Below, piece after piece: positions 9,492 through 57,085 of a DNA stretch of 64,000 nucleotides (positions within the stretch are counted from its first letter, which is position 1; each line of letters starts with the position of its first letter). This DNA is from an uncultured Bacteroidales bacterium. Its GTDB lineage: Bacteria > Bacteroidota > Bacteroidia > Bacteroidales > CAZLJX01. Under the pieces are notes generated by a model. That model saw only the letters and a program-made list of their open reading frames with translations, ran no database searches and was not told where the DNA came from. The stretch covers positions 24,571 to 88,570 of the forward strand of contig CAZLJX010000004.1 of NCBI GenBank assembly GCA_964559985.1. The letters are read 5' to 3'. The translations under genes and the position numbers were made by a program.

Positions 9492-9542
9492 CAGATGTCT
9501 TTTTATTGCAAAACCAATTTGCTATTTTAAACCGCTTAATGC

Positions 9543-12500: not shown

Positions 12501-12596
12501 TTTAACCAGGTTATTGTATGGATTATGACCATTTTACTTTATATTGCCCTTTATTATGATGCCCTGAAAAAACTATTAAATTTATCGGGAAAATAA
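9543..12596 (+). CDS. ABCG/ABC-2-type transporter (fused ATPase and permease) with a ~270-aa N-terminal non-transporter extension
   Basis: 1017 aa. Walker A GASGAGKTTLLN, signature SGGQRKRLNIA, Walker B ILFVDEPTSGLS, then a multi-TM ABC-2 region. The N-terminus (LMQLFAIIAKQDEGVESNEIEYV) looks TerB-like by eye, but this is unverified. Confidence 0.85.
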   Translation: MSEEILKALMQLFAIIAKQDEGVESNEIEYVSNFLNQQLNAEAAREYLQLFYEHAGLKEGKESEGKEKDEPKLTSVKDSVRILGICKKINKKLTQEQKVVVLVRLWELVNTDRKFSDQRMAIINTAAEVFNITTEEFKSVESFVIKDDPASLDTSNILIINDKEKTGELSKHIRTEALDGLLLILQIKSVDLYFLRYTGHEEIFLNGLPVNSKRIYLFANGSAIRLPKGKPIYYSDVVARFMADITSAHISYNVRNLEYRFPNGALGLRNINLSEEHGKLIGIMGASGAGKTTLLNVLTGIENPSAGEVVINSINLHTQHDKIEGVIGYIPQDDLLIEELTVFENLYYNAKLCFKDKTEEELISLVDKTLASLGLLDRKMLKVGSPLNKTISGGQRKRLNIALELIREPSILFVDEPTSGLSSRDSENVMDLLRELALKGKLIFVVIHQPSSDIYKMFDKMIILDTGGYLIYYGNPVEAVTFFKKADMQINSDVGECPTCGSVNPELIFNIIDAQVVDEFGRYTDKRKVMPEQWENLYGSKIKPEIIEDAHEEPPRSLDIPNWINQFKIYTIRDFVSKISNRQYIILNLLEAPVLGLILSFLIRYIADPSSKIYIFRDNENIPPYIFMSLIVAMFLGFMVSAEEIFRDRKILKREAFLNLSRSSYLVSKVLIMLIISAIQSLFYVMVGNLILGIHGLWFEYWWALFTIAAFSNMQGLNISSAFNSAVTIYIMIPLLMIPQMALGGAMFSFDKLNRVIGSVDKVPMVAEFIATRWSYEALMVRQFKDNKFEKKYYELEKDISVSDFKQVYYFAEITERLDFVSQNIKSKDPEIKKQVLMDLALLKHELAKEKRKVPEIQFNFIDSLTYDVFNDYVAYNTNDYIENLKSYYSQKFEAATDKKETIIEYLNENRPGLYNKTRNHYHNEAVQEIVTNLYEKNKIIRYKEKLVQQSDPIFQDPEPEGFLSFRAHFYAPKKHFAGKYFDTFWFNQVIVWIMTILLYIALYYDALKKLLNLSGK

Positions 12597-17610: not shown

Positions 17611-20600
17611 ATGCAAATGAGAAAAGTACTTTATTTATTGATTCTAGCTATAAATTGGCTGGATCTTTTTCCGCAATCGGCTACAGTGACACTAAGGCCT
17701 CAGTATATAGATCTATCGTCTGCAACAGCGCAAAGTGGTGTATTAATGACTTTGTCATCCTATTCCAGTAATGATGCAAAGTATAGGCTTTATAACGGTG
17801 CCAATCAATACAATTGCTGGGATGGAACCCAATATGTTACATCAACCGCATATGCCAGCGGACCTTCAGTGCCAGGTACACCTACTACTTCTACAACATT
17901 CTGGATATTATTCCAGAGAGGTGCAAATAATGCTACTGCCGCTTCGTATCGCGACAGGCTTGGACCTGCATATTCTTCAAATTATCAAACTGTAGCATTG
18001 TCGGCAGCAACTTCAATTACAACTCCCTTTACTCTTAGCGGTAATGTTACTGCCGGAGGTGGAAATAACCTTGACGTTAAATACGCAGTACTTGGATGGT
18101 CAACAACAAATTTAATTACGGTTACATCAACCGATTTAACGACAGGTTCTTTTTCATTGGTAGCTCCTGATGGTACGACAATCGATAAAATTGAAATCAG
18201 AAAAACTAATAATACCAGCATAACAGAAAAAACCGGCTCATGGACAAGTACAGGTTCAGTAGGTAACATTTCTCTTGGATCAGTTTCAGATCCCGAACCC
18301 ACTAACCATGTGGAAAATCTTGATGTCATTATGCCTAATCCGGGCACTATGACGGTTAGCTACACTGAAAATGACGGAGCCCAACCTCCGCACGGCTACC
18401 TGATTATTGTTAATACATTACCAATAACCCCGCCAACAGATGGTGTTCCACAATCAAACGATAATGACCTCAGTTCAACCGGTGGTGTTATGAATGTCAG
18501 TCATGGAGTAGTTTCGGTAAATTTTTACAATCCTCTGCCTGGCCAAACTTATAATGTTACTGTTTACCCATATACAAATACCGGAGTTAGTATTGACTAT
18601 AAAACCGGTGGAGATGTTCCTGAAATTCAATTTGAAGCGCCTGCATTTACCGTAGCAAAATATTTTGACGATAATACCCAGGGGAATGCCATTGTTAAAG
18701 ATGAAGAAGGTGCCCAGTCATGGGGATTTTCAAGTGGATTTGCACGTATGAACGGCTATTCGGGTGCTTCTATTCCGAATACCGACTGGCTTATTCTGCC
18801 ACAGGTAAATCTTAGTGCCACCAGTTACCTGACTTTTATTACCCGCTGGCATTTTGGCAGCCTGGATGCCGATGATTACCTGAAACTGATGTATTCGCAG
18901 GATTATGACGGGACGGGAGCTCCATCAGGATTTACATGGAATGAAGTCAGTTTTAACATAGGAGCCGATAATGCATGGACAAACTCTGGCCCGATAAAAA
19001 TACCAGTAACCGGAAACACTTATATCGCATTTAAATATAAAAGTAATGATGGCGCCCGCCAGTGGGATGTTGACGAAGTACTTATTGCTTCACAAGTCGT
19101 GTTTACAGGTGCTTCAAGCAATGATATGTCTGATCCGGCCAACTGGACTGGTGGTGTTTTCCCTGAAACATTTTCGGTTGTTAAAATTGAAAATACCCTT
19201 GGCGTTATCAGCGGAACACTTGAATGTCAGCACATGATGATTGAGCCTGCAGGTAAATTAACTGTTAACGGAGGAGGTACACTCACAGTAAATGGTGAAT
19301 TATATATCAAAGCCAACGGAACAGGCAGAGGTTCATTTATTCCTTTGGGAACAGCTACCTATTCTACCGGTACCGTAGAAATATTTTTTGAAAATATGCT
19401 TCAAAACTACCATTTCTCTATTCCTGTTACTACTGCCAAGGCTAGTGTAATGGGTGACCTTAATGTAAACTTCCTGTATGAATACAATACAGCTGGTTCT
19501 TCATGGTCGCGCATCACCGATGGCAATGCCGATCTGGTAGCGGGTAAAGGATATGTTTATAAAAATACATCCGGCAGTTATACCGCTAAATTTACCGGAA
19601 CTATTGCCAACGGGACCATCAATCCTCCAGTGCTAAGCAATACTGGTAACAACTGGTGGCTGGTAGGTAATTCTTATCCCTCGGCTATTGATCTTGGCTG
19701 TGGCGACACTCCCATAGGTGGCTGGGTAATGACAGACCTTAGACCAACATTTTATACCCGCACCAATGGTGCCGTAGTTACTTATAACTGGACAGGCCCG
19801 GGAGGCGGGGTTAACGGAGGTAGCAGGTATTTTGCCAACAACCATGCAATATGGATTAAAGTTACCGGTGCAAGCCCGGCATTTACCATGGCAAATACTG
19901 TCAGGGTACATAACGATGTTACTTTCCTGAAAGCATCTGAAATAATGCCTGTTTTAAGGCTTTCGGCTGTTAACGGAGATTTCAGCGACGAAACCCTTAT
20001 CCGTTTCCATAGCAATTCGCTAACAGGATTGGACGATTATGACAGTGAAAAAATGCTGACCGAAGATACACGTTATGCAGAAATTTATACGATTTCAGAA
20101 AATAGCAAACTGGCAATCAATACCTACCCCGAAACAGGAGACCGCCTTGAAATACCTGTAGGTTTCCGTTGTAAAGCTGATGGCCAATATACCATCAAGG
20201 TTTCTGAAATGGCAAATTTCCCCGCTGATGTAACCATATTACTGGCCGATAATCAATTAAACAAAATTGTTGACTTGAACATAACCCAATCCTATGCCTT
20301 TTTCAGCACAGTTACCGATAACAGTTCACGTTTTACCCTATATTTCATCAAAGGCCTGGTACCCGACGACCTTAGCGGAGATAATGGCATAGCTGCCGGA
20401 ATGGGTGAAAATAACCAGAACAAAATTAAAATATATGGTTACAACAACCAGATTCTGGTGAGCACGCCCGAAACTTCCGGTAAAATTATGGTTTACGATT
20501 TAACCGGCAAACTGGTAACCGATGTTACCATGAACGGGAATAATTACAGCATCAACGTTGAAAACAAAGGATATTATATGGTTAAAGTTGCAACCAGTCA

Positions 20601-20634
20601 ACAGGTTATTACACGTAAAGTGTTTGTAAAATAA
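17611..20634 (+). CDS. Large secreted protein with a T9SS C-terminal sorting domain
   Basis: 1007 aa. Signal peptide, a central region resembling the choice-of-anchor J / MAM-like module (DWLILPQVNL...WDVDEVLI), and a C-terminus KIMVYDLTGKLV...GYYMVKVATSQQVITRKVFVK typical of Por/T9SS tails. Confidence 0.85.
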   Translation: MQMRKVLYLLILAINWLDLFPQSATVTLRPQYIDLSSATAQSGVLMTLSSYSSNDAKYRLYNGANQYNCWDGTQYVTSTAYASGPSVPGTPTTSTTFWILFQRGANNATAASYRDRLGPAYSSNYQTVALSAATSITTPFTLSGNVTAGGGNNLDVKYAVLGWSTTNLITVTSTDLTTGSFSLVAPDGTTIDKIEIRKTNNTSITEKTGSWTSTGSVGNISLGSVSDPEPTNHVENLDVIMPNPGTMTVSYTENDGAQPPHGYLIIVNTLPITPPTDGVPQSNDNDLSSTGGVMNVSHGVVSVNFYNPLPGQTYNVTVYPYTNTGVSIDYKTGGDVPEIQFEAPAFTVAKYFDDNTQGNAIVKDEEGAQSWGFSSGFARMNGYSGASIPNTDWLILPQVNLSATSYLTFITRWHFGSLDADDYLKLMYSQDYDGTGAPSGFTWNEVSFNIGADNAWTNSGPIKIPVTGNTYIAFKYKSNDGARQWDVDEVLIASQVVFTGASSNDMSDPANWTGGVFPETFSVVKIENTLGVISGTLECQHMMIEPAGKLTVNGGGTLTVNGELYIKANGTGRGSFIPLGTATYSTGTVEIFFENMLQNYHFSIPVTTAKASVMGDLNVNFLYEYNTAGSSWSRITDGNADLVAGKGYVYKNTSGSYTAKFTGTIANGTINPPVLSNTGNNWWLVGNSYPSAIDLGCGDTPIGGWVMTDLRPTFYTRTNGAVVTYNWTGPGGGVNGGSRYFANNHAIWIKVTGASPAFTMANTVRVHNDVTFLKASEIMPVLRLSAVNGDFSDETLIRFHSNSLTGLDDYDSEKMLTEDTRYAEIYTISENSKLAINTYPETGDRLEIPVGFRCKADGQYTIKVSEMANFPADVTILLADNQLNKIVDLNITQSYAFFSTVTDNSSRFTLYFIKGLVPDDLSGDNGIAAGMGENNQNKIKIYGYNNQILVSTPETSGKIMVYDLTGKLVTDVTMNGNNYSINVENKGYYMVKVATSQQVITRKVFVK

Positions 20635-20636
20635 TA

Positions 20637-20930
20637 TTGACTATTAAAATGACGCGCATTTATAAACATACAGGCCAGATGATGGTGAAAGAAATAGGCA
20701 ATGAAAAAATTCTTGTCCCCCTGCGCAGCAATGTGGCCGATATGGAACAGATTTATACCCTCAACGAAACAGCAGCTTTTATATGGGAACGCATGAATGG
20801 CAAACATTCAACCGATGAAATTGCCAGTCAGCTTGCTGATGAATACGATGTAAAGCTTGAAACTGCTGTTACCGATGTGGAAGAATTTGTAACTGAAATG
20901 CGTGATTTTCTTGAATTGATAAACGGATAA
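20637..20930 (+). CDS. PqqD-family protein (RiPP recognition element, lasso B1-like)
   Basis: 97 aa. The pattern ...EKILVPL......IYTLNETAAFIWERMNGKHSTDEIASQLADEYDV....AVTDVEEFV matches the PqqD fold. The track start is TTG at 20637; ATG at 20649 (MTRIYK) is more likely. Confidence 0.8.
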   Translation: MTIKMTRIYKHTGQMMVKEIGNEKILVPLRSNVADMEQIYTLNETAAFIWERMNGKHSTDEIASQLADEYDVKLETAVTDVEEFVTEMRDFLELING

Positions 20931-20948
20931 TAAATAATTAAAAAACAA

Positions 20949-21098
20949 ATGCTTATGAAAATAGAAAAAAAGGCTTTAAAAAAGGTTTACTCAAAACCAG
21001 CCGTAGGTAAAATAAAAATCGACCGTGGTATTTCAATGGTGATGCAATCAGACCCTCCGGGCGACCCCGGGATGAAAACCGGAAACCCTTTTAAATAG
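20949..21098 (+). CDS. Candidate RiPP precursor peptide (49 aa), not in the ORF track
   Basis: ATG at 20949 to TAG at 21096-21098, translating to MLMKIEKKALKKVYSKPAVGKIKIDRGISMVMQSDPPGDPGMKTGNPFK. It starts 18 nt after the PqqD gene. The Lys-rich leader has a YSKPAV motif (compare the lasso-leader YxxPxL and the paeninodin YSKPSL). The C-terminal part is rich in Pro, Gly and Asp, and a strong hairpin follows. Confidence 0.55.
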   Translation: MLMKIEKKALKKVYSKPAVGKIKIDRGISMVMQSDPPGDPGMKTGNPFK

Positions 21099-21118
21099 AA
21101 TTTTTCAGGAATAAAAAC

Positions 21119-21151
21119 GGAGGTTTCGTCTTTGGCGAAACCTCTTTTTTT
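21119..21151 (+). terminator. Rho-independent terminator/attenuator directly after the precursor ORF
   Basis: GAGGTTTCG (21120-21128) pairs with CGAAACCTC (21136-21144). The 9-bp perfect stem has a 7-nt loop and is followed by T7 (21145-21151). Confidence 0.55.
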
Positions 21152-21175
21152 ATTTCTTTGCATATTATTAAAAAA

Positions 21176-22081
21176 ATGATCTGTTTCGAAAAAGCATTCC
21201 AACTCTGCATTGCCGGAGTAAATTTCAGGTTTAACCATGCTACGGGGCAATTCCGTCTTGCCCTGGAACAGTTTTACGAACATTTCGTTGTGCCCTGCGA
21301 TATTGCTCCGGATATTGTCATCGAAGTTAAACACGGAACTTCTGATTTTCTCAAAAACACCAGGCAAGTTTTCAGCGCTGAATTTGAACATGGTCTGCTT
21401 GAAAAAATTCAATACCGTTGGGCTATTTTTCAACCCGGGTATTGTATGGCATGCTATACCGATAAGAATGAACAAATACCTTATGTAACCTGCCTTCCGG
21501 GCAAGGATAATGAACCCTGGCAAATACAGGTTCAGACGCCCCGGATCATTTCCGGAAATTGCTGCCTTGAACCCCTGCCCTACCCTTTGGGCCCCCTGAT
21601 CATGTATCACTACTTTACACATCATAATGCTGTGATGCTTCATGCCTCAGGTATTTTTGACCAGGTTACGCAAAAAGGTTTCGTTTTCAGCGCTGTATCA
21701 GGAACTGGAAAAACTACCATGTCGCAATTGTGGGCTGAAAAAGGATGCACCGTGATAAACGACGACCGGCTGATCTTAAAAGCAGAAAATGAAAAAATTA
21801 CAATGTATAACAATCCGTTATATATCAAAGACATTCCAAGGAGTACACCGGTTTCGGCTATTTTTTTAATTCACCAGGCACCCGTTCACCAGATAAGGCG
21901 CATTGAAGGGGTTTCAGCCTTTGCCGGGCTGATGGCTTTCTGCATACAGCATCATTACGATAAAATTATGATGGAACTGCTGACCGGAACCCTTATACAA
22001 ATAATAGATAAAGTGCCGGTATATGAACTGGGTTTTGCATTGAACAGCAATATTGTTGATTATGTCAGAAACAATATCTGA
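21176..22081 (+). CDS. HPr-kinase-like (HprK C-terminal domain) putative peptide kinase
   Basis: MLHASGIFDQVTQKGFVFSAVSGTGKTTMSQLWAEKGCTVINDDRLIL matches the HprK-type P-loop and the following DD, as in lasso-peptide kinases and HprK-related kinases. ATG at 21176; the track start is TTG at 21158. Confidence 0.75.
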   Translation: MICFEKAFQLCIAGVNFRFNHATGQFRLALEQFYEHFVVPCDIAPDIVIEVKHGTSDFLKNTRQVFSAEFEHGLLEKIQYRWAIFQPGYCMACYTDKNEQIPYVTCLPGKDNEPWQIQVQTPRIISGNCCLEPLPYPLGPLIMYHYFTHHNAVMLHASGIFDQVTQKGFVFSAVSGTGKTTMSQLWAEKGCTVINDDRLILKAENEKITMYNNPLYIKDIPRSTPVSAIFLIHQAPVHQIRRIEGVSAFAGLMAFCIQHHYDKIMMELLTGTLIQIIDKVPVYELGFALNSNIVDYVRNNI

Positions 22082-22523
22082 AGGTACACTGGATTTGCTT
22101 GCCGTTGACCTGCTAAGGCAAGGCAGGAAATTGAAAATCAGGCTTTCGGGAGCCAGTATGTTTCCCTGCCTTGTAAGCAGCGATATGGCTGTTGTCATTC
22201 CGGCAGGCGAAAAAATTACCCGTGGCGATATAGTGGCATTTGCTTCTGGAGAAAAGGTTATTCTGCACAGGGTTAGAAAAATAACCAACAAAAACGTAAT
22301 CTGCAAAGGCGACAGCAATTGCTTTTATGACGAACCGGTTGAAACAGAAAATATTGCCGGAAAACTTCATCACATTGAGAGAAAGGGAAAAATCATGATG
22401 GTAAATAAACATCCATGGTTTATGTTTTGGAAATTTGTTACGGCTTTTTGCCCTTGTATTCCCCCTTTACTAAAAAAATGCTACCTTTATCTTCACAATG
22501 TCTATGGCAGAAAAACAGTATGA
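22062..22523 (+). CDS. S24/S26-family (signal-peptidase-I / LexA-like) serine peptidase
   Basis: LSGASMFPCL (Ser nucleophile motif GxSMxP), GDIVAF, HRVRKI...CKGDSN (Lys / GD motifs) and a hydrophobic C-terminal tail. It overlaps the kinase gene end by 20 nt. Confidence 0.7.
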   Translation: MSETISEGTLDLLAVDLLRQGRKLKIRLSGASMFPCLVSSDMAVVIPAGEKITRGDIVAFASGEKVILHRVRKITNKNVICKGDSNCFYDEPVETENIAGKLHHIERKGKIMMVNKHPWFMFWKFVTAFCPCIPPLLKKCYLYLHNVYGRKTV

Positions 22524-24288
22524 ACATATTTTGCGGTCAATAACACTGATCAGAAAACATAATCCATTTGTATTCAATTTTCTGGTTTTTTTATCTGTTA
22601 TTTCGGGTTTTGTTCCGTTGGTTACTGTATGGCTGATAAAACTTTTAATCGATTATTTGCTTAAAGCCATTGAAACACAGCATGGATTTGACACCACATT
22701 TTATTTTCTGATTGCAGCCACCACCCTAACTGTACTGCTGAGCCTGCTTCTTCACTCTTTGTTATTGTGGATAAGCGAGTTACATTCATCCAAACTTACA
22801 GGGAAGCTTTTTGATGAATTACATCGAAAATCAACCGGGCTTGGGTATCCGGTGTTTGAAAATCCGGGAGAGCAGGATGTGGCCTTTAGGGCACGTAACG
22901 AATTGGCATACAGACCTCATCGCCTTACCGGACAAATCATGAACTTTATTCAGGGTTTAACGGCATTTCTGACCTCTATATGGCTGGTAGCCTATCTTAA
23001 CCCATGGATGGCCATTGTTTTTTTTGCATTGATGATACCTGCCATCTGGGTAAGGTTAAATTATGCAAATCATGAATGGGAATGGAAAAGAAAAAAAACC
23101 CGCCTTGAGCGTAAAAATATGTATTTCGGGCGCATCCTTACCGATGCTGTATTTGCTAAAGAAATAAGGCTTTTCGGACTTTCTGATTACTTTACCCATG
23201 AATTTGGCAGGTCGTACAATACTTTATTAAAAGAAAAAAACCAGTTTTTGCGCCTGAAGAACCTGACTGAGCTCAAAGGTTATCTGTTTATTTCACTGGT
23301 TTTTATGGTTGCCTTGCTTTATGTGGCGCACAAAGCCATTCATAAATCCATTACTCCGGGCGATGCTGTGATGTATATGCTGGTGTTTCAACGAACATTA
23401 ACTTTTATAAGGACCATCATGACATCCATCACAGGCATTTATGAAGATACCCTGGGAATGAAAAACCTGTTTGAATTTTTAAGCCGTCCTGAGCCGGAAA
23501 AAACACCTGTCAATGAAACCAATCAACCACAACTCCATCATAATATTATTATTCAAAATGTTTCATTTACCTATACATCTCAAAAACAAACAGTTTTTAA
23601 AAATCTGAACCTTGAAATCCCGGCAGGGAAAACCACGATTCTTGTCGGGGAAAACGGCTCGGGAAAAACCACCCTGGTAAAATTGCTGGCCCGTTTATAT
23701 CATCCCGACTCAGGCACTATTTATTTTGATAACACCGATATCCGTTCATTTCCGGAAAAACAGTACCGCGAATTTGTGAGTGTTTTGTTTCAGGATTTTG
23801 TATTGTATCATCTTTCGGCACGCGAAAACATTGCTTTTGGTAAAATAAGTGAACTTAACAACGATGATCGCCTAAGACAGGCAGCTAAAAAAGCTGGTAT
23901 TTCAGATGCCATTGAATCAATGCCTTCATCCTATGAGACAACCCTTGGATTTCTTGATGAAAACAGTGTGGAGCTAAGTATGGGACAATGGCAGCGACTG
24001 GCTATGGCACGCAGTTTTTTTAAAGATTCGGAAATCATTTTATTAGACGAACCCACCAGTGCCTTGGATGCTTTTCATGAAGCCATGCTTTTTCAGACAT
24101 TAAAGGAACTTGTCAGGAATAAAACAGCCATTATTGTAAGCCACAGGCTTTCGCTGGCACGAAACGCCGATCATATTATCCTGCTGACCAGCCAGGGAGA
24201 TACTGAAACCGGAACCCACTCCCAGCTGATGCAAAAAAACGGAACTTATGCAAGAATGTTTTTATTGCAATCGCAATTATACATATAG
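22498..24288 (+). CDS. ABC exporter, fused permease and ATPase (type I exporter, McjD/MsbA-like); no C39 peptidase domain
   Basis: 596 aa. Six N-terminal TM helices, Walker A GENGSGKTTLVK, signature LSMGQWQRLAMAR and Walker B ILLDEPTSALD. It overlaps the peptidase gene by 26 nt. Confidence 0.9.
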   Translation: MSMAEKQYEHILRSITLIRKHNPFVFNFLVFLSVISGFVPLVTVWLIKLLIDYLLKAIETQHGFDTTFYFLIAATTLTVLLSLLLHSLLLWISELHSSKLTGKLFDELHRKSTGLGYPVFENPGEQDVAFRARNELAYRPHRLTGQIMNFIQGLTAFLTSIWLVAYLNPWMAIVFFALMIPAIWVRLNYANHEWEWKRKKTRLERKNMYFGRILTDAVFAKEIRLFGLSDYFTHEFGRSYNTLLKEKNQFLRLKNLTELKGYLFISLVFMVALLYVAHKAIHKSITPGDAVMYMLVFQRTLTFIRTIMTSITGIYEDTLGMKNLFEFLSRPEPEKTPVNETNQPQLHHNIIIQNVSFTYTSQKQTVFKNLNLEIPAGKTTILVGENGSGKTTLVKLLARLYHPDSGTIYFDNTDIRSFPEKQYREFVSVLFQDFVLYHLSARENIAFGKISELNNDDRLRQAAKKAGISDAIESMPSSYETTLGFLDENSVELSMGQWQRLAMARSFFKDSEIILLDEPTSALDAFHEAMLFQTLKELVRNKTAIIVSHRLSLARNADHIILLTSQGDTETGTHSQLMQKNGTYARMFLLQSQLYI

Positions 24289-24344
24289 GTTTTTAGCCGG
24301 CAATTTTATATCTTGTACCATGCTTTTCAGCCAAAATATTGACT

Positions 24345-25061
24345 ATGAAAATCAAATGCATTATTGTTGATGACGATCCGGCAGCACTTGCTGTTTTGGA
24401 AAATTATGTAAAAAAAATACCGGTGCTCGATTTGCTTGCCCGTTGCGAAAATGCCCTCGAAGCAATTGCTTTTCTCGGAAATAATAAGGTTGATTTAATC
24501 ATTCTCGATATCGAAATGCCCCATCTTACAGGAATTGATTTTTTAAAAACCCTTTCACATCCTCCTAAAGCTATCATTACTTCGGCCAATAAAGAATATG
24601 CACTCGAAGGTTTTGAACTCAATGTACTGGATTATTTGCTTAAACCTATCACCTTTGAGCGATTGCTGAGGGCTGTCAACCGATTCCCGTCTCCGGAAGC
24701 CGAACAAAAACCTGCATCTGGCGCTGATGAACAGGATTGCATCTATGTAAAAGAGAATAAAAAAATTGTCAAAATCTGTATTAAAGATATCCTTTATATC
24801 GAAAGCCTTAAAGATTATATCAAAATTCACCTTGCCGGAAAATCGGTTGTCACCAGACAAACCCTTTCATCTATTGAAGCAGCCCTTCCGGACGGAAAAT
24901 TTCTCCGCATTCATAAATCCTTTATTGTATCGCTCGAAAAAATTGATGCATATACCGCTGTGAGTATCGAAATAGCAAAGAAAGAACTTCCCGTTGGCCG
25001 TCAGTACAAAGAACAGGTACATCAGAAACTGGGAATTTCCATTTCTGGCCAGGAAGATTAA
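24345..25061 (+). CDS. LytTR-family DNA-binding response regulator
   Basis: Receiver motifs IIVDDD, ILDIEMPHLTG and LLKP, plus a C-terminal LytTR domain (IYVKENKKIVKI...ILYIESLKDYIKIHL...FLRIHKSFIV). ATG at 24345; the track start is TTG at 24339. Confidence 0.9.
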   Translation: MKIKCIIVDDDPAALAVLENYVKKIPVLDLLARCENALEAIAFLGNNKVDLIILDIEMPHLTGIDFLKTLSHPPKAIITSANKEYALEGFELNVLDYLLKPITFERLLRAVNRFPSPEAEQKPASGADEQDCIYVKENKKIVKICIKDILYIESLKDYIKIHLAGKSVVTRQTLSSIEAALPDGKFLRIHKSFIVSLEKIDAYTAVSIEIAKKELPVGRQYKEQVHQKLGISISGQED

Positions 25062-25185
25062 AACCTGTCATTAATTACTATCATTTTTACCGATTTTTTA
25101 TTAATTTTCAAAAAAATAAATAATGACATCCTTAGGGGAAAAAAATCGTTATTTATTTGATCCTTAAAAGGTTCATCTGTAAAAA

Positions 25186-28100
25186 ATGGTCAGAATTTTT
25201 GTAAATATCTTCATTTGCTTTATTCTTATTATCATTTCAGGATTTTCGGAAGCTGAAGGCCAGGAAAAAGGGAAACCTTTCAGCAGGCATTACGGCCCAA
25301 AAGATTATAAAGGAGGAACCCAGAACTGGGCTGTGGTGGAAGATAATCACGGAATGATATACATTGCCAACCAGCAAGGCGTGATACAATATGATGGTGC
25401 TGAATGGCATGCTATACCTAATAAAAATAAAAGTACAATCCGCTCACTTGCCCTTGACGACCATGGGCAAATTTGGGTAGGCGCCTATGGTGAAATGGGT
25501 TTTCTTGCTCCCGAAAAAAATGGCGCTCTGACATTTCAGTCCATCACCAGCCTGGTTGACAAAGAACACATTAACTTTGCTGAAGTCTGGAATATTCAAC
25601 CTGCCGACAGCAGCATTTATCTGCTTACCGACAATTATTTGTTCCGCTACCGTCAGCATACCCTCAAAGCATGGACATGTAAAGGAGAGTATTTCTATAC
25701 CGAAATGGCTTGTCGTAATCATTTTTTATTCCAGGAAATTGGAGGAGGCCTTCATGCCATTATCAACGACTCATTGGTTTCAGTTACCGGAAGCGATTTT
25801 TTCAGGCAAAGCCGTATTCATGCATTTTTCGACCTGGGCGGTGATACTGTGCTCATTGGAACAAGGTCGCAAGGTTTATTTACAGCCGTTGTTGAAATCG
25901 CTGGTTATAAAATCCATTTAAGACAACTTCATTCCATCGAAGGAGAGGCTACAGAATATTTTATAAAACATTCTTTATACCATGGAATAAAATTACTGAA
26001 TGGTGATATGGCATTTGCCACCATCAGGGGTGGTGTTATTTTGATCGATAAAAACTTCAGAATAAAAGAAATTTATACCAGCCAGACTGCCATCGGTCAC
26101 GAAGCCTGCTATTACCTTATCCAGGCCAAGGATAAATCTTTATGGGTAGCTTTAGATAACGGATTGGCGCATATCGAGTTAAACAGCCCATTTCGCTACT
26201 GGGACAATGAATCGGGATATAAAGGTACCATTACCGATATTAACCGTCACAATAAAACGCTATATATTTCCACCGCTTCGGGAGTTTACTATCTGGATGA
26301 AACTGCTGGTACCTATATTTCACGTTTTATACAAATTCCTGATTTCAGCCAGCAAACATGGTGTCTGCTTAAGGTTAACGACCTGAGATATAAAGGCGAT
26401 AGTGCTTTACTGGCCAGTACAAGCGAAAATATTTTCCTGATTGAAAACCACCGGGCACGTTCAATATATTCAAATAAAAGTAATTACGAAATTTTCCGTT
26501 CACCACGCAACCCCAGGTTGTTATATGCCGGAACACGTAACGGCCTGCAGGTCCTTGAATTTAAAACAGGAAAATATAGACTAAAAAGTCATATCAACGG
26601 CATTAATTATGAAGTGCGTGGCCTGGCCGAAGACAAATCAGGCGATTTATGGGCAAGTGTCAGTTATAAAGGAGTAGCACGGATATCGTTTACCGATAGT
26701 TCATTTTCACGTTATTCCATCGAATATTTCGATACTACCGACGGGTTGCCCGACCTGAAACAGGTTACACCGGTTTTCCTGGCAAACGACCTTGTATTTG
26801 CTTCGGATAGCGGAATTATGACTTTTGTGCCTGAAAACCGGAAGTTTACATTTTATCAGAAACTGGGCAGCAACCTTTCCAGGCTGCAGCTTAACCGCTT
26901 TGCCACCGGCAAAAACGGCCATATTTATATCAATGGGAATATCGTTTTAAAACCTTACGGAAACGGATATATTGCAGATAGTACCCCTTTCAGGCGCATT
27001 CCGGCAACCGAATCAGATGCTGTTTTTGCCGATCATGATGGAAAAATATGGATTGGAAATCCCGACGGCCTTTATGTTTATAAACCCGAGCTTTACAAAC
27101 CTTCCGAAATTGTATTTGAAGCACTTATCAGGGAAGCATCCCTTTCGAGCGGTCAAAAAATTTTTATGGGCCATGGAAAACCCGAAAAACCTGAAATCGA
27201 TTATAAAAACAATTCACTGATATTCAAATATGCTGCTCCGTTTTTCGATGTTGAAAATCAGACCCTGTACAGTTATATGCTTGAGGGTTTTGACCTGGGT
27301 TGGTCGGAATTTACAGGTGAAAAACGCAAGGAATATACCAATCTTTCTGAAGGGGAATATACTTTTAAAGTCAGGGCAAAAAATATTTACGGGCAAATCA
27401 GTACAACAGCAACCTACCATTTTATCATCCTTCCACCCTGGTTCAGGACAAACTGGGCTTTTGCCATTTATGCCATATTAATTATTCTGATTTTCAGGCT
27501 TTTTATCAAACTTCGTACCCGCCAGATTTTACGCGAAAAAGATAAACTGGAAAAAATAATCGAAGAACGGACTGCCCAGATTAACATGCAAAAAGAAGAA
27601 TTGCTTTCGCAGGCCGAACAACTTAAGGCCATTAATGCTGAACTTGAGAAACTCTCAATTGTTGTTCGCGAAACAGCCACGGCAGTTACCATGTTCGATA
27701 ATACCGGAAAATTTCTATGGGTCAATGAAGGTTTTACAAGAATGTATGGCTATACTTTCGACCAGTTTGTCACCGAAAGAAGTGATAATATTTTCAACTG
27801 CGACCTGGCTCCCAATATTAAAAGACTGATTGCGGGCTGCATTCAGAATAAAAAAACCATTATTTACGATTTCTTTACCACCACCAGAAGCGGAGAAGGG
27901 TTATGGGCACAAACAACCCTTACACCGGTTTTGAATGACCTTGGCGAAACCATCAGCCTTATTGCCATTGATTCTGATATTACAAGGCTCAAAGATGCAG
28001 AACAGGAAATATTTTACCAGAAAGATAAAATCGAAAAACAAACACAACTGCTTGAGCAAAAAAACATTGAACTCGAAAAACTTTCTATTGTTGCCCGCGA

Positions 28101-29157
28101 AACCGATAATGCCATCATTATTATGGATTCAAAAGGCAATTTTGAATGGGTAAACGAAGGTTTTACACGAATGTATGGCTACACCATTGATCGTTTGATT
28201 GCCGAAAAAAGTCATAACATTGTCGGCGCCAGTGCCAACCTGAACATCAAAGACCTGATCAACGTATGGTTTGGTAACAAAAAGCCTATTGTTTACGAAT
28301 CAATGAATTCAACACGCGATGGCCGTTTAATCTGGACACAGACTACCCTGACGCCAATCCTCGATCGCAGCGGAAACCTGGTAAAGATGGTTGCTATCGA
28401 TACCGATATCACTAAACTGAAAGAAGCACAGAAACAAATTGAGGAACAACGTAATGAGCTTGAAAAAGCCAATGCCACAAAAGATAAATTCTTCAGTATT
28501 ATTGCCCATGATTTACGAAGCCCTTTTGCCTCACTGCTCAGTCTGATCAATATTCTCAACGATGAATTTGATAATCTGGATGAGGCGCTAAAGAAAAAAT
28601 ATATCGGTTCGGTACAGGAAGGGGCCAAACGTACATTCAGCCTGCTCGAAAACCTGTTAGACTGGTCGCGGATCCAGAAAGGGCACATCAAATTTACCCC
28701 GGCGCACCTCGAAATGGCTTTTCTCATTCAGGAAAGTATTTCGTTACATGCTGAAATTATCACCAAGAAAAATATTGCAGTACAAACGGATATTCCCGAT
28801 CAGGTGACCGTTTTTGCCGATGAAAATATGATTCGCACCATACTGCGTAATTTAATTTCAAATGCTATAAAATTCAGTTTCCCGGAAGGAAAAATTGAAA
28901 TTTCGTACCAAAAAAACGAAAAGGAAATTGTTTTCATGGTTCGCGATCATGGTACAGGTATTCAGCCCGATGACCTGCAAAAACTTTTCCGCATTGATAT
29001 ACATCATACCACCCTGGGCACGGCTAAAGAACGTGGCACGGGTCTTGGACTGGTTTTATGCCGCGAATTTGCCGAACGCAACAACGGACGCATCTGGGTT
29101 GAAAGCGAACCGGGGGAAGGCAGTACTTTCTATTTCTCACTGCCGTTATCGGAATAA
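25186..29157 (+). CDS. Sensor histidine kinase with a periplasmic two-component-regulator propeller/Y_Y_Y region, TM helix, two PAS domains, HisKA and HATPase_c
   Basis: 1323 aa. Repeated beta-propeller-like segments (IWVGAYGEMGF, LWVALDNGLAHI, IWIGNPDGLYVY) and YSYMLEGFDLGWSE..EYTNLSEGEYTFKVRAKN (Y_Y_Y). A TM helix (WAFAIYAILIILIF) is followed by the H-box FFSIIAHDLRSP and the ATPase boxes NLISNAIKFS, DHGTGI and GTGLGL. Confidence 0.9.
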   Translation: MVRIFVNIFICFILIIISGFSEAEGQEKGKPFSRHYGPKDYKGGTQNWAVVEDNHGMIYIANQQGVIQYDGAEWHAIPNKNKSTIRSLALDDHGQIWVGAYGEMGFLAPEKNGALTFQSITSLVDKEHINFAEVWNIQPADSSIYLLTDNYLFRYRQHTLKAWTCKGEYFYTEMACRNHFLFQEIGGGLHAIINDSLVSVTGSDFFRQSRIHAFFDLGGDTVLIGTRSQGLFTAVVEIAGYKIHLRQLHSIEGEATEYFIKHSLYHGIKLLNGDMAFATIRGGVILIDKNFRIKEIYTSQTAIGHEACYYLIQAKDKSLWVALDNGLAHIELNSPFRYWDNESGYKGTITDINRHNKTLYISTASGVYYLDETAGTYISRFIQIPDFSQQTWCLLKVNDLRYKGDSALLASTSENIFLIENHRARSIYSNKSNYEIFRSPRNPRLLYAGTRNGLQVLEFKTGKYRLKSHINGINYEVRGLAEDKSGDLWASVSYKGVARISFTDSSFSRYSIEYFDTTDGLPDLKQVTPVFLANDLVFASDSGIMTFVPENRKFTFYQKLGSNLSRLQLNRFATGKNGHIYINGNIVLKPYGNGYIADSTPFRRIPATESDAVFADHDGKIWIGNPDGLYVYKPELYKPSEIVFEALIREASLSSGQKIFMGHGKPEKPEIDYKNNSLIFKYAAPFFDVENQTLYSYMLEGFDLGWSEFTGEKRKEYTNLSEGEYTFKVRAKNIYGQISTTATYHFIILPPWFRTNWAFAIYAILIILIFRLFIKLRTRQILREKDKLEKIIEERTAQINMQKEELLSQAEQLKAINAELEKLSIVVRETATAVTMFDNTGKFLWVNEGFTRMYGYTFDQFVTERSDNIFNCDLAPNIKRLIAGCIQNKKTIIYDFFTTTRSGEGLWAQTTLTPVLNDLGETISLIAIDSDITRLKDAEQEIFYQKDKIEKQTQLLEQKNIELEKLSIVARETDNAIIIMDSKGNFEWVNEGFTRMYGYTIDRLIAEKSHNIVGASANLNIKDLINVWFGNKKPIVYESMNSTRDGRLIWTQTTLTPILDRSGNLVKMVAIDTDITKLKEAQKQIEEQRNELEKANATKDKFFSIIAHDLRSPFASLLSLINILNDEFDNLDEALKKKYIGSVQEGAKRTFSLLENLLDWSRIQKGHIKFTPAHLEMAFLIQESISLHAEIITKKNIAVQTDIPDQVTVFADENMIRTILRNLISNAIKFSFPEGKIEISYQKNEKEIVFMVRDHGTGIQPDDLQKLFRIDIHHTTLGTAKERGTGLGLVLCREFAERNNGRIWVESEPGEGSTFYFSLPLSE
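27640..28497 (+). repeat. Internal tandem duplication (2 x 429 nt) encoding two paralogous coiled-coil+PAS units
   Basis: Unit 1 (27640-28068) begins ELEKLSIVVRET...WVNEGFTRMYGYT...QTTLTPVL...IAIDSDITRLKDAEQEI. Unit 2 (28069-28497) begins ELEKLSIVARET...WVNEGFTRMYGYT...QTTLTPIL...VAIDTDITKLKEAQKQI. By eye, roughly half of the residues are identical. Confidence 0.7.
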
Positions 29158-30522: not shown

Positions 30523-30633
30523 ATACATGGAGCTTTCATTTGAAAAGATTTTTAAAATTGAAACCGTTATTATGTAAAAACACCTATTTTTACCTGTTTG
30601 TGAATAAAAACGTTGGGATATTATCAAAGCAGT

Positions 30634-32151
30634 ATGCTCAAATATAAATTTATATTGGGTTTTGTATCGCGCATTTTCGTACAGATGCTTCAGCTGGTAG
30701 CCACTATTTTTATTGCCCGTATTGCAGGTCCTTCGGTGTTAGGCACCATCGCTTTCGGAATGGCTTTTGTTGATATGTTTTCATTTATTGGCAGCCTTGG
30801 ACTTGGTTCAGCACATACAAAACTCATCAATGAAGGAGAAAACATTGACGATTGCACAACCACTTATGCCATTCTTCATATTATCACCAAATTTATATTT
30901 TTTATCACGGTGCTGACGTATTTTATTTTACAGAAATACGTTTTTCATTTTCCGTTTGAAAGCAGGGAGCATGAATATGTGATCATCATCAGCATGGTTA
31001 CAGTTTTGATTAATACCATGATTGACATTCCGGTAAGCAATTTTGCAGCACGAATGGAACAAGCCAAATCGGATATTCCCGAAATGTTTCGTAATATTTT
31101 TCTTGCACCATCCCGGATTATAACGGTCATTGTTGGGGGGGCTGCTGTAGCATTGGCTTTTGTCAATTTTTTATCTTACCTCATCATCATTCCTTTTTAC
31201 TGGTATCTGTTCTTTAAAACATACCATTTTGGAAAATTCAGTTTTCCACTTGCAGGAAAATATTTCAGATATGGTATTCCATTGATTGTTTTAAGCCTAT
31301 CTGTGTCTTTTTCAAATACATTAGATAAGGTATTATTGCAATACTTTACCAACAGCGAAATGGTTGGCATTTACACTGCCGGATTCCGCATAGGGGGCTA
31401 TTTTCTGCTTATCGGACAATCGGCAGGTTTAATCTTTTTCCCGTTATTTTCAAAAGCAGTAAGTGAGCACAATATTCAGATGATTGATGATGCAATAGCG
31501 CGTTATCACAGGTTTGTTTTTCTATTTGTCATGCCTGTTATGATATTGCTGGCATTGCTCAGCAGCCCGATTGTGAGTATTATGCTTGGCGAAAAATATT
31601 ACCAAAGCATCCCTGTATTGACCATTATCACAATCGCACAACTGATATACCTGGTTCATATTCCGTACGGTAATTTAATCAGCGGCATGGGAAAATTCAG
31701 ACTGGCAGCCCTGATCAATATCATCAATGTGCTGGTAATATCCTTAGCGCTACTAATGCTGGTGCATCCCGCCTTTGCTGGATTGGCTTCAAAAGGAGCA
31801 GCGTGGTCATTCCTGATTTCCAATATTTTTCTTGCAGCCTGTTTTGTTTATTATGCAAAAAAATTTGCCCCGGGTATTCAACTCAAAACTTATTTCCGAT
31901 TTTTACTGATTGGCATTATACTATTTGTTGGTTTTTATTATTCATACTGCTGGTGGGTTGGAAGCAAAACCCTCCATCAAATCATTTTTGTTTTCCTATA
32001 TTTTACGGTAGTGTACAGCATTTTTAATTATTCAGGAATTATGAGAAATTCAGATTGGAAGTACCTGTTATCTTTGGGCCGCATGGATGAGTTATTTAAA
32101 TATGTGCGATCAGAAATTTTTTACCGGAAAAAAGAAGAACAAAAACATTGA
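30634..32151 (+). CDS. Polysaccharide flippase (Wzx / MOP superfamily)
   Basis: About 505 aa and about 12 or more hydrophobic helices. The N-terminus LQLVATIFIARIAGPSVLG is typical of polysaccharide-biosynthesis (Wzx) proteins. ATG at 30634; the track start is TTG at 30613. Confidence 0.8.
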   Translation: MLKYKFILGFVSRIFVQMLQLVATIFIARIAGPSVLGTIAFGMAFVDMFSFIGSLGLGSAHTKLINEGENIDDCTTTYAILHIITKFIFFITVLTYFILQKYVFHFPFESREHEYVIIISMVTVLINTMIDIPVSNFAARMEQAKSDIPEMFRNIFLAPSRIITVIVGGAAVALAFVNFLSYLIIIPFYWYLFFKTYHFGKFSFPLAGKYFRYGIPLIVLSLSVSFSNTLDKVLLQYFTNSEMVGIYTAGFRIGGYFLLIGQSAGLIFFPLFSKAVSEHNIQMIDDAIARYHRFVFLFVMPVMILLALLSSPIVSIMLGEKYYQSIPVLTIITIAQLIYLVHIPYGNLISGMGKFRLAALINIINVLVISLALLMLVHPAFAGLASKGAAWSFLISNIFLAACFVYYAKKFAPGIQLKTYFRFLLIGIILFVGFYYSYCWWVGSKTLHQIIFVFLYFTVVYSIFNYSGIMRNSDWKYLLSLGRMDELFKYVRSEIFYRKKEEQKH

Positions 32152-57047: not shown

Positions 57048-57055
57048 TAACTTTG
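57048..57055 (+). promoter_or_regulatory. Candidate -7 promoter box TAacTTTG upstream of asnB
   Basis: TAnnTTTG match 31 nt upstream of the ATG at 57086, in a 100-nt gap. Confidence 0.3.
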
Positions 57056-57085
57056 CTAACCTTGGTTTGTTACAAAAGAATAAAC

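Follow-up and report, generated by a model that had tools for sequence, protein, structure and literature searches.

A lasso-like peptide maturation system with a proposed new leader peptidase in the Bacteroidota

The 64,000-nucleotide stretch of DNA analysed here (hereafter, the window) contains a compact group of genes that raises the question of whether a small ribosomal peptide can be matured and exported with lasso-peptide parts (a leader-binding chaperone, a kinase and an exporter) in the absence of the lasso cyclase and protease. An earlier note had interpreted positions 20637-24288 as a lasso-like cluster lacking these two enzymes, with a hidden precursor gene and a Ser/Lys peptidase occupying the place of a leader protease. 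The analyses reported here confirm the observation and support this interpretation, albeit with several corrections. They outline a real, conserved and apparently undescribed Bacteroidota gene set, in which the missing lasso enzymes appear to be replaced by a signal-peptidase-like enzyme that is often fused to the exporter. No publication describing the system was found.

All five open reading frames are present on the + strand. The first (20649-20930, 93 aa; the longest ORF starts at TTG 20637) encodes a PqqD-family RRE, the leader-peptide chaperone, matching Pfam PF05402 with 67.4 bits against a cut-off of 23.4, with sub-threshold hits to the lasso B1, ScmD and PqqD models at about 36-39 bits. 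It is followed by a small ORF (20955-21098, 47 aa; 49 aa from ATG 20949), by a P-loop kinase-like gene (21176-22081, 301 aa; the longest ORF starts at TTG 21158), by a gene for a 153-aa peptidase (22053/22062-22523) and by a gene encoding a 596-aa type I ABC exporter (22498-24288). The kinase and peptidase genes overlap by 20-29 nt and the peptidase and ABC genes by 26 nt. The LHASG, SGTGKTT, NDD and GASMFP motifs were all confirmed.

To assess whether this arrangement is conserved, relatives of the kinase were searched for in a collection of species genomes. The same gene set recurs in 80 genome loci from the 224 kinase relatives found, far more than chance would give. These loci are essentially all from the Bacteroidota (one bin labelled Alphaproteobacteria looks misbinned) and present the gene order [T9SS]-precursor-PqqD-kinase-peptidase-ABC, with the last two genes either separate or fused. 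A PqqD gene was present in 60 of the 86 sources clustered (85 loci plus a window segment). In addition, a distant, Firmicutes-like locus carries the same set, comprising an ABC gene, NTP_transf_5, the kinase, PqqD, an S26-like peptidase and a 35-aa YSKPxL-type peptide.

The small ORF, MKIEKKALKKVYSKPAVGKIKIDRGISMVMQSDPPGDPGMKTGNPFK, is a genuine conserved gene. It is not truly hidden, since gene callers report it as a 47-aa product on several public contigs, and a single-sequence phmmer search returned 19 small-protein relatives in 1.84 billion representatives. A profile built from it identified homologues beside the kinase gene in 50 of 86 related loci, with E-values of 1e-27 to 1e-5, whereas 36 of the 86 loci show no precursor within +/-8 kb, and the closest relative (L003) lacks both PqqD and a precursor nearby. 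Among 55 precursor sequences, Y14 is conserved in 53, P17 in 53, D25 in 54 and Ser/Thr34 in 54. The spacing is fixed, which places S/T29 at -2 if Y is at -17. The resulting leader, Y(-17)xxP(-14)x[IVL](-12)...[ST](-2), matches the YxxPxL...T(-2) register described for lasso leaders (PMC10368454). In the window, the leader presents Y14, P17, V19, D25, I28 and S29, and is followed by S34, a PPxDP motif and a C-terminal NPF motif. A strong terminator- or attenuator-like hairpin (21119-21145; 12-bp stem, 6 GC pairs), followed by a T-run up to 21155, lies directly after the small ORF, between it and the kinase gene. About half of the homologous precursor genes are followed within 70 nt by a similar hairpin, with a mean best 40-nt MFE of -11.8 kcal/mol, against -7.4 for random windows of the same loci.

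The absence of a lasso cyclase holds for every related locus, as no Asn-synthase homolog was found within +/-8 kb in any of them. Similarly, no recurring gene family beyond PqqD, kinase, peptidase/ABC, NTP_transf_5 and the T9SS protein was detected, and no B2-like family recurs among these loci, although B2 was not searched for with a profile. The lasso counterparts of PqqD, the kinase, NTP_transf_5, the ABC exporter and the leader register could also be explained by a decayed lasso cluster that has lost its C and B2 genes and no longer makes a product, with the peptidase and the small ORF being incidental. This possibility appears very unlikely, given that the same C-less, apparently B2-less set is conserved among the relatives from 224 species-level genomes, with intact catalytic motifs, overlapping reading frames, peptidase-exporter fusions and selection on the peptide, and that no locus retains a cyclase within +/-8 kb.

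The kinase-like protein has the HprK/PEPCK fold, as predicted with AF2 (pLDDT 93.6), with residues 1-140 forming a beta-rich N-terminal domain and residues 145-307 the nucleotide-binding domain. A precomputed hit assigns it to Pfam ScmC (PF27840). H162, S181-G-x-G-K-T187 and N201-D-D-R204 (ORF numbering from 21158) are invariant in 18-30 homologs. Foldseek searches matched PEPCK (4e-7) and HprK/P (7.6e-5), and a profile search against PDB matched PEPCK (2e-4) and L. casei HprK/P (2.9e-4). The protein scores, however, far below the cut-offs of all named NCBIfam kinase families (HprK_rel_B, 33.8 bits against 200; ScmC TIGR04249, 12.5 against 125). A hit to PEPCK_ATP scores 24.6 bits. It is only a superfamily-level HprK/PEPCK relative, and its resemblance to PEPCK, at least as strong as that to HprK in both sequence and fold, does not exclude a non-peptide substrate. 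The suggestion in the earlier note that PqqD and HprK-related pairs occur near EPS and PEP-CTERM loci is also borne out. The NCBIfam models HprK_rel_A and HprK_rel_B exist and hit weakly, and a distant kinase relative sits in a PqqD/radical-SAM/NTP_transf_5 cassette next to Wzy, GNVR and flippase genes.

The peptidase matched Peptidase_S24 with 25.8 bits against a cut-off of 23.3, and sigpep_I_arch with 50.4 bits against 51.85. Multiple sequence alignment revealed that its second catalytic residue is an invariant His (H72 in ILHRV), and not the Lys proposed in the earlier note. In a 35-sequence alignment, G33, S35, M36, P38, G58, H72, R73, G86, D87 and D93 are invariant, and in a 66-sequence alignment they are conserved in 95-100% of sequences. 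A profile search against PDB identified human SEC11C (6.8e-11) and SEC11A (1.6e-10) as the best solved relatives, followed by bacterial SPase I (5e-4), with LexA at 0.2 or weaker. The protein is an ER/archaeal/SipW-type (S26B) Ser-His enzyme. HMM and structure searches did not reassign either the kinase or the peptidase to housekeeping families. No N-terminal transmembrane segment was detected in the peptidase, and in 32 of 68 homologs it constitutes the N-terminal domain of the ABC exporter, which strengthens the idea that it stands in for the leader protease. The exporter itself (PF00664 and PF00005) presents six hydrophobic segments and an NBD, but no C39 domain. Its best NCBIfam similarities are to MsbA, HlyB and NHLM-type exporters, all below their cut-offs.

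A salient feature not mentioned in the earlier note is that the precursor gene usually sits directly after a gene encoding a T9SS cargo protein. In the window, this gene (17611-20634, + strand) ends 2-14 nt before PqqD and encodes a 1007-aa protein with a variable N-terminal part (choice-of-anchor J domain) and a conserved ~500-residue C-terminal module (about 19078-20634) that ends in a type A T9SS sorting domain, as indicated by choice_anch_J and Por_Secre_tail hits. Residues ~500-1007 align to the proteins encoded directly upstream of the precursor gene in 29 loci. The AF2 model (pLDDT 79.5) is all-beta, and only its CTD matches known T9SS CTDs. The unit is hence larger than 20637-24288, because this cargo gene belongs to it. 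Elsewhere, the same module is followed by small Sec/PID-CTERM (exosortase-sorted) Pro-rich proteins.

Downstream of the exporter, the window encodes a LytTR response regulator (24345-25061, + strand) and a 1323-aa sensor histidine kinase (25186-29157, + strand), suggesting that the small exported, processed peptide might be a pheromone sensed by this pair, as in Gram-positive Agr, Com and Blp systems. A LytTR regulator with a PAS histidine kinase also lies upstream in L003. Nonetheless, the pair was found only in the window and its two nearest relatives, and not in the other ~80 loci, and probably reflects lineage synteny. Furthermore, the most conserved partner is a T9SS cargo gene, and the leader and the start of the core are conserved across orders, unlike strain-specific pheromones. 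The association of the pair with the system is doubtful, and a pheromone role appears very unlikely.

Taken together, the data support, with reasonable confidence, an operon for the maturation and export of a small ribosomally made peptide, built from the accessory half of a lasso-peptide pathway, even though its chemistry is inferred. In this proposed scheme, the PqqD protein would bind the leader of the precursor and the ScmC/HprK-like kinase, presented with the bound precursor, would phosphorylate a hydroxyl residue. The best candidate is the nearly invariant Ser/Thr34, position 4 of the core in the lasso register. There is precedent for an RRE-assisted HprK-type kinase acting on a linear precursor in BsfK, which phosphorylates Ser3 of its core and is accelerated by BsfB1, and further precedents in the Paenibacillus kinases and the nucleotidyltransferase PsmN. 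In about a quarter of related loci an NTP_transf_5 enzyme, absent from the window, may further decorate that phosphate. The cytoplasmic S26B peptidase would then remove the leader at the mouth of the exporter, which would move the Pro/Asp/Gly-rich product across the inner membrane. No outer-membrane export component is encoded. No lactam ring would be made, because there is no cyclase, and the product probably acts together with the co-encoded T9SS surface protein.

The cleavage site in this scheme is ambiguous. The product would be VMQSDPPGDPGMKTGNPFK if cleavage follows residue 30, or DPPGDPGMKTGNPFK if it follows S34. The lasso register predicts cleavage after L/M30, which breaks the small-residue (-1) rule of signal peptidases, whereas the (-3,-1) rule would fit cleavage after S34, with M/L at -3, but several homologs have Pro at +1. 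Furthermore, one locus (L033) encodes three tandem precursors that end at, or 1-2 residues after, the conserved Ser (...LVMTS, ...TSI and ...TSVG), which fits poorly with a C-terminal core. These copies differ almost only at synonymous sites within the conserved 3' core (DSDISLVMTS, with one non-synonymous V/I change just upstream) but are less alike at their N-termini, indicating purifying selection on that core. An alternative model is hence that the conserved N-terminal ~34 residues are the product, with the peptidase trimming the variable C-terminal tail after Ser/Thr34 and the kinase phosphorylating the exposed C-terminal Ser, to yield a cationic phosphopeptide ending in ...ISMVMQS(P). 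Characterised lasso kinases do act on the C-terminal Ser of linear precursors, with little other specificity, as in Paenibacillus. This alternative appears nonetheless unlikely. The conserved N-terminal part of RiPP precursors is normally the leader, the lasso register places the cut after residue 30 and Pro directly after the cleavage site, as would occur in several homologs, is generally disfavoured by signal peptidases. Moreover, the Pro-rich tails keep their own motifs (PPxDP, NPF[K], PFGGxxPDY) and resemble the mature part of the PID-CTERM partner proteins, which suggests that the tail is functional.

The closest known systems include the phosphorylated and phosphoglycosylated lasso-peptide clusters (paeninodin Pade, pseudomycoidin Psm and Bradymonas Bsf). 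These share a PqqD-type B1/RRE, an HPr-kinase-like K acting on the linear precursor, an optional "uncharacterised nucleotidyltransferase" N, an ABC exporter D and the leader register, Y(-17)xxP(-14)xL(-12)...[T/I](-2), and in Bsf the phospho-site lies near the start of the core. In contrast, the window cluster has no Asn-synthetase-like cyclase C and no transglutaminase-like B2, and neither is conserved in related loci, as far as the searches above extend. Core position 1 is V/Q/I/L rather than G/A/S/C, the acidic residue at core positions 7-9 is not conserved and leader removal is assigned to an S26B peptidase. The product is therefore expected to be linear.

The coupling of a leader peptidase to a type I ABC exporter, often by fusion at its N-terminus, is shared with peptidase-containing ABC transporters (PCATs; C39 bacteriocin exporters such as ComA, LagD and NHLM exporters) and implies cleavage at the time of export. 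The protease here is, however, a Ser-His signal-peptidase fold and not a papain-like C39 Cys protease, there is no double-glycine leader and, in the window, the two proteins are encoded by separate, overlapping genes. With the S26B signal peptidases (SEC11A/C, Sec11, SipW), the peptidase shares the SM.P Ser box, the HR His box and the GD....D box, aligning with SEC11A/C at E about 1e-10, and the family is one step below the sigpep_I_arch cut-off. It differs in lacking an N-terminal membrane anchor and a signal peptide, so that the catalytic domain is most likely cytoplasmic, in being embedded in a peptide-maturation operon and in having a substrate with no classical signal peptide.

The SynChlorMet (Scm) cassette and the HPr-rel-A system (TIGR04249, TIGR04352-55), themselves uncharacterised, also have a PqqD-like protein with a ScmC/HprK-related P-loop protein, often with NTP_transf_5 and near EPS or exosortase loci, but no radical-SAM/SPASM enzymes are present here and all scores are far below the cut-offs of those families. 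Finally, the PID-CTERM/exosortase-sorted small proteins are likewise small Pro/Gly/Asp/Asn-rich peptides encoded directly after a T9SS protein carrying the same ~500-aa C-terminal module, but they use a Sec signal peptide and a C-terminal sorting signal, and not a cytoplasmic leader with RRE, kinase and peptidase-ABC.

ORF listing of the window and the public gene calls on an identical contig confirmed the earlier note in its description of five co-directional genes encoding a PqqD-family protein, a small ORF, an HprK-like kinase, a serine peptidase and an ABC exporter. On the + strand, a gene for a 1007-aa T9SS cargo protein (17611-20634) ends only 2-14 nt before the gene for the PqqD-family protein (20649-20930, 93 aa), which is followed by the small ORF (20955-21098, 47 aa, or 49 aa from 20949), a terminator-like hairpin (21119-21145) with a T-run, and the genes for the kinase-like protein (21176-22081, 301 aa), the peptidase (22062-22523, 153 aa) and the ABC exporter (22498-24288, 596 aa). 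The kinase and peptidase genes overlap, as do the peptidase and ABC genes, the latter by 26 nt. A LytTR response regulator (24345-25061) and a 1323-aa sensor kinase (25186-29157) are encoded downstream. Base composition is unremarkable, no Rfam families or tRNAs were detected in the window, and a long antisense ORF (20987-21643, 218 aa) and other overlapping ORFs had no support. Other notable genes in the window include those for a 1017-aa protein combining an N-terminal TerB domain with an ABC ATPase and an ABC-2 membrane domain (9543-12596), an unusual architecture, and for an 876-aa GAF-PAS-PAS-SpoIIE (PP2C) phosphatase that is probably a partner-switching regulator (5847-8477).

Domain searches assigned the PqqD-family protein to PF05402 (67.4 bits), whereas its best NCBIfam matches, lasso B1 (38.8), ScmD (37.9), lasso B1 Bac (35.9) and PqqD (35.7), are below their cut-offs and cannot be told apart. 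The kinase-like protein matched HprK_rel_B at 33.8 bits (cut-off 200), PEPCK_ATP at 24.6, HprK_rel_A at 17.0 (cut-off 200) and ScmC at 12.5 (cut-off 125), and the precomputed Pfam assignment, shared by most of its homologs, is PF27840 (ScmC). Residues H162, S181-G-x-G-K-T187 and N201-D-D-R204 (ORF numbering from 21158), corresponding to the upstream His, the P-loop G.SG.GK[ST] and the downstream DDR, are invariant or nearly so in 18-30 homologs. An AlphaFold model (pLDDT 93.6) matched PEPCK (E = 4e-7) and HprK/P (3tqf at 7.6e-5; 1kkl) in Foldseek searches, and a sequence profile identified PEPCK (2e-4; HaSa...FfGLSGTGKTT) and L. casei HprK/P (2.9e-4; GdSGvGKS...iaDDRv). The data hence indicate that this protein is a catalytically intact member of the PEPCK/HprK P-loop superfamily, but not a member of any curated kinase family.

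The peptidase matched Peptidase_S24 (25.8 bits), sigpep_I_arch (TIGR02228; 50.4 bits against a cut-off of 51.85), SipW (23.1), bacterial SPase I (20.2) and LexA (15.3). Multiple sequence alignments highlighted ten positions (G33, S35, M36, P38, G58, H72, R73, G86, D87 and D93) that are invariant among 35 sequences and kept in 95-100% of a larger set of 66. The family profile matched human SEC11C (6.8e-11) and SEC11A (1.6e-10), with the SM.P, HR and GD....D boxes aligned, while bacterial SPase I scored 5e-4 and LexA 0.2 or weaker. Given that a Ser-His pair with two Asp six residues apart is generally the signature of ER-type (S26B) signal peptidases such as Sec11, SPC18/21 and SipW, the Ser/Lys peptidase proposed in the earlier note is not correct. 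The protein has no N-terminal hydrophobic anchor, and only a weak C-terminal hydrophobic segment (KD 1.3). The ABC exporter is a classical 6-TM type I exporter without a C39 domain.

To assess the conservation of this gene set, we searched for relatives of the kinase, identifying 83 in the protein database and 224 in 185,579 species genomes, from which 80 loci were retrieved. Essentially all are Bacteroidota, encompassing Paludibacter, Marinilabiliaceae, Bacteroidales, Flavobacteriales, Sphingobacteriia-like bins, 'Chlorobiota' bins and one bin labelled Alphaproteobacteria that looks misbinned. Locus L057, from the record labelled Alphaproteobacteria bacterium INTA.CYC.164, is nearly identical in gene order and peptide sequence to the Bacteroidales locus L067, and its label is probably a binning error. 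Cultured carriers include Anaerophaga thermohalophila, Alkaliflexus imshenetskii, Thermophagus xiamenensis, Marinilabilia salmonicolor and Geofilum rubicundum, as well as Carboxylicivirga. Clustering of all ORFs from 85 loci plus a window segment (86 sources in all) outlined only five families recurring in 20 or more of them: the kinase (85), the peptidase/ABC (65), PqqD (60), the T9SS protein (29) and NTP_transf_5 (PF14907; 20). Other recurrent families, in Marinilabiliaceae loci, correspond to lineage-specific housekeeping synteny and, by inspection of representative sequences, look like TsaD, SmpB, MiaA, ExbB/D, a TamB-like protein and an ECF sigma factor. No NTP_transf_5 gene and no second precursor copy are present anywhere in the 64-kb window.

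The earlier note had also pointed to the absence of the two defining lasso enzymes, and the comparative analysis extends this description to the family as a whole, within the limits of the searches. None of the five genes or their neighbors has an Asn_synthase domain. The only AsnB in the window (57053-58960) has an intact GATase domain and lies 33 kb away in a long co-directional polysaccharide-biosynthesis locus (30613-61332), which also contains a Wzx-like flippase (30613-32151), a PMT_2-like glycosyltransferase (46106-47941) and a second protein, of 609 aa, with only a weak glutamine-amidotransferase (GATase_7) match (52968-54797). A phmmer search with this AsnB against all ORFs of the 85 loci gave no hit at E<=1, although the sensitivity of a single-sequence search is limited. 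Likewise, Pfam and NCBIfam scans of all window genes from 17611 to 29157 revealed no transglutaminase-like B2 protease, and no B2-like family was apparent among the recurrent families, although the loci were not searched with a B2 profile.

The ORFs next to pqqD in two related loci, L004 and L005, are visibly homologous to the small ORF of the window, and a profile search identified members of this family in 50 of 86 loci (E from 1e-27 to 1e-5), nearly all lying just upstream of the kinase module and on the same strand. Among 55 sequences, K/R11-12 are conserved in 50 and 46, Y14 in 53, P17 in 53, I/V/L19 in 49, I/L24 in 49, D25 in 54, I28 in 47, S/T29 in 44, L/M30 in 48, S/T34 in 54, P36-P37 in 40 each, P40 in 38, and the C-terminal N-P-F in 31, 41 and 38, respectively. 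Marinilabiliaceae carry a C-terminal PFGGxxPDY variant instead of NPF. A single-sequence phmmer search against 1.84 billion representatives returned 19 hits at E<=1e-3, all but two of which are 44-82-aa proteins with the same motifs; a 473-aa hit to the precursor is an unrelated low-complexity repeat protein. About half of the precursor genes are followed by a strong hairpin with a U-run, even though the downstream genes are co-directional. The mean best MFE is -11.8 kcal/mol against -7.4 for random windows of the same loci. This is the usual way in which RiPP operons over-express the precursor. Overall, these results indicate that the small ORF is a genuine precursor family.

Lasso leaders carry YxxPxL at -17 to -12 and a conserved Thr (sometimes Ile or Val) at -2 (PMC10368454). 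In this family the spacing from Y14 to S/T29 is fixed at 15 residues, and Y(-17), P(-14), I/V/L(-12) and S/T(-2) therefore all coincide if the leader ends at residue 30. The core in the window would then be VMQSDPPGDPGMKTGNPFK, and the nearly invariant Ser/Thr34 would be core position 4. The precedents are direct. BsfK phosphorylates Ser3 of its core on the linear precursor, and this is accelerated by the RRE BsfB1 (PMC10368454); Paenibacillus-type kinases phosphorylate the C-terminal Ser; and PsmN, an 'uncharacterised nucleotidyltransferase', adds hexoses to that phosphate.

Evidence linking the peptidase to the exporter was obtained from gene fusions. In L004 the exporter is 747 aa long and begins with the peptidase domain, with Pfam placing S24 at residues 33-104 and BLASTP with the window peptidase yielding E = 4e-11. 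Across the loci, 32 of 68 peptidase homologs are such fusions, 735-790 aa in length, providing Rosetta-stone evidence that the peptidase processes the exported substrate. The segment linking the two parts is only weakly hydrophobic and contains Arg and Lys, suggesting that the peptidase domain is most likely on the cytoplasmic side, as C39 domains are in PCATs.

The position of the cleavage site is ambiguous. The lasso register predicts a cut after L/M30, whereas the (-3,-1) rule generally accepted for signal peptidases fits S34 better (-1 is S/T and -3 is M/L), which would yield DPPGDPGMKTGNPFK in the window, but some homologs have Pro at +1. Locus L033 encodes three tandem 30-32-aa precursors (7251-7607) that end at, or 1-2 residues after, the conserved Ser (...DSDISLVMTS, TSI, TSVG). 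These copies differ almost only at synonymous sites within the conserved 3' core, with one non-synonymous V/I change just upstream, while their N-terminal thirds are less alike. The locus nevertheless keeps PqqD, the kinase, a peptidase hidden in a longer ORF, NTP_transf_5 and a MatE/Wzx-like transporter, used instead of the ABC exporter. This keeps alive an alternative core-follower scheme, in which the conserved N-terminal part is the product and the exposed C-terminal Ser is phosphorylated. We regard the overall RiPP-like explanation as likely and, within it, the leader-core scheme as somewhat more probable than not, whereas the core-follower scheme appears unlikely.

A salient feature not recognized in the earlier note was the association with the upstream T9SS gene. 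The protein upstream of the module in 29 loci shares residues ~500-1007 of the window T9SS protein (17611-20634) at 22-36% identity, while the N-terminal parts differ. The T9SS-then-precursor pair is kept when it is detached from the enzymes or convergent with them (L032, L042, L079, L085), when it is duplicated (L004) and when PqqD is inserted between the two genes (window, L006, L008, L038). Starting from the T9SS module, we looked at four unrelated contexts, none of which had the kinase. In three of them, a small gene directly downstream encodes a Sec signal peptide, a Pro/Gly/Asp/Asn-rich stretch and a C-terminal sorting signal: L091 (7624-7911; NCBIfam PID_CTERM at 41.8 bits against a cut-off of 26), L087 (8664-8897) and L088 (8689-8919), where the gene lies one gene (273 aa) upstream of an exosortase X/Y-like gene. 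Such a pair is also present in a kinase locus, L041 (downstream of 9338-10783, minus strand). These observations point to a possible functional pairing of T9SS cargo with exosortase substrates. The mature parts of these small proteins resemble the precursor tails in composition, as illustrated by GPSGPGGPPSTGNEVGNETNS compared with APPGGPSESIGLTGENNCNNPF. Furthermore, a distant, Firmicutes-like locus (L086, 4558-9224) has ABC, NTP_transf_5, kinase, PqqD, an S26-like peptidase and a 35-aa MKKEYSKPELQIIKIE...GNEGPDAPLD peptide, lying between two giant surface proteins (a BspA-type LRR protein and one with Flg_new repeats). The 35-aa precursor and an upstream 109-aa membrane protein share the C-terminal motif NEGPDAPL[DE].

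These pairings led us to propose, tentatively, that the peptide is a dedicated partner of the co-encoded T9SS surface protein. Under this hypothesis, a short Pro/Asp/Gly-rich (phospho)peptide would be delivered to the periplasm, join the conserved ~500-residue C-terminal module of the cargo, either non-covalently or covalently, and reach the cell surface by riding the T9SS. The operon encodes no outer-membrane component. Bacteroidota would then have two interchangeable ways to supply this partner, a Sec signal with a PID-CTERM/exosortase tail or the lasso-derived RRE-kinase-S26B::ABC route, and the system would define a new RiPP class of linear phosphopeptides matured by a signal-peptidase-type PCAT. 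The AF2 model of the module is an all-beta multi-domain string, for which a fold search gave only generic beta-sandwich or Ig-like matches plus T9SS CTDs, with no functional clue. This reading is possible but remains the less probable outcome. If the overall RiPP-like explanation is correct, it would establish a genetic link between small processed peptides and a specific family of T9SS cargo proteins, with PID-CTERM proteins as an alternative partner, making PID-CTERM, exosortase X/Y and this T9SS module, which have no known function, experimentally approachable. A pheromone circuit involving the downstream LytTR regulator and sensor kinase is also possible but weakly supported, since these genes are adjacent only in the window and its nearest relatives, and they are probably not part of the system.

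In the literature searched, reviews and primary papers describe the kinase and the nucleotidyltransferase only inside complete lasso clusters. No paper in that collection links PqqD to T9SS or describes an S26-type leader peptidase or PCAT, and none mentions PID-CTERM, the papers returned on that subject matching only XrtF or exosortase F. Public records give these proteins no names. What appears to be new is the combination, in an RRE-dependent RiPP-like pathway, of a new precursor family, a new class of exporter-coupled leader peptidase and an unexpected T9SS pairing. The gene anatomy is solid, whereas the chemistry is inferred and the biology could be considerably more novel.

Compared with lasso peptide clusters, the system shares the PqqD-type RRE and the leader register, but no lactam synthetase or B2 protease was detected in the searches described, and the core does not look like a lasso core. 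In the lasso register its first residue is V/Q/I/L/A, against G/A/S/C in lasso cores, and no acidic residue is conserved at positions 7-9, with D at position 9 in only 18/55 sequences (G in 12, N in 6). If the proposed scheme is correct, this would be a lasso-derived pathway that has dropped the lasso, and RRE, kinase and nucleotidyltransferase modules would constitute a portable toolkit for linear phosphopeptides. Compared with C39 PCATs, the peptidase domain is S24/S26 and no conserved GG/GA/GS pair sits at a fixed leader position; in the window the peptidase and exporter are separate, overlapping genes, but in 32 of 68 homologs the peptidase is the N-terminal domain of the exporter. Compared with S26B signal peptidases, the window peptidase has the catalytic Ser, His and GD....D box, but scores just below the curated family cut-off and lacks an N-terminal anchor. 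A cytoplasmic, anchor-less member of the ER-type signal peptidase family working as, or fused to, an ABC exporter would, if confirmed, represent a third solution to leader removal at an exporter, widening both the PCAT concept and the known biology of S26 enzymes. Finally, in contrast to the SynChlorMet cassette, in which the radical SAM/SPASM maturases ScmE and ScmF lie next to ScmC and ScmD, no radical-SAM gene is present in the window cluster or in the conserved module. Such genes are present only with a distant ScmC relative (P0077), in a cassette of PqqD, B12-radical SAM, TPR, PqqD, radical SAM, ScmC and a GNAT::NTP_transf_5 fusion directly upstream of GNVR, Wzy and flippase genes. This links the ScmC/PqqD/NTP_transf_5 trio to EPS loci, and the proposed pathway would provide a testable substrate for the large, uncharacterized ScmC, HprK-related, NTP_transf_5 and PqqD gene families that sit next to EPS and exosortase loci.
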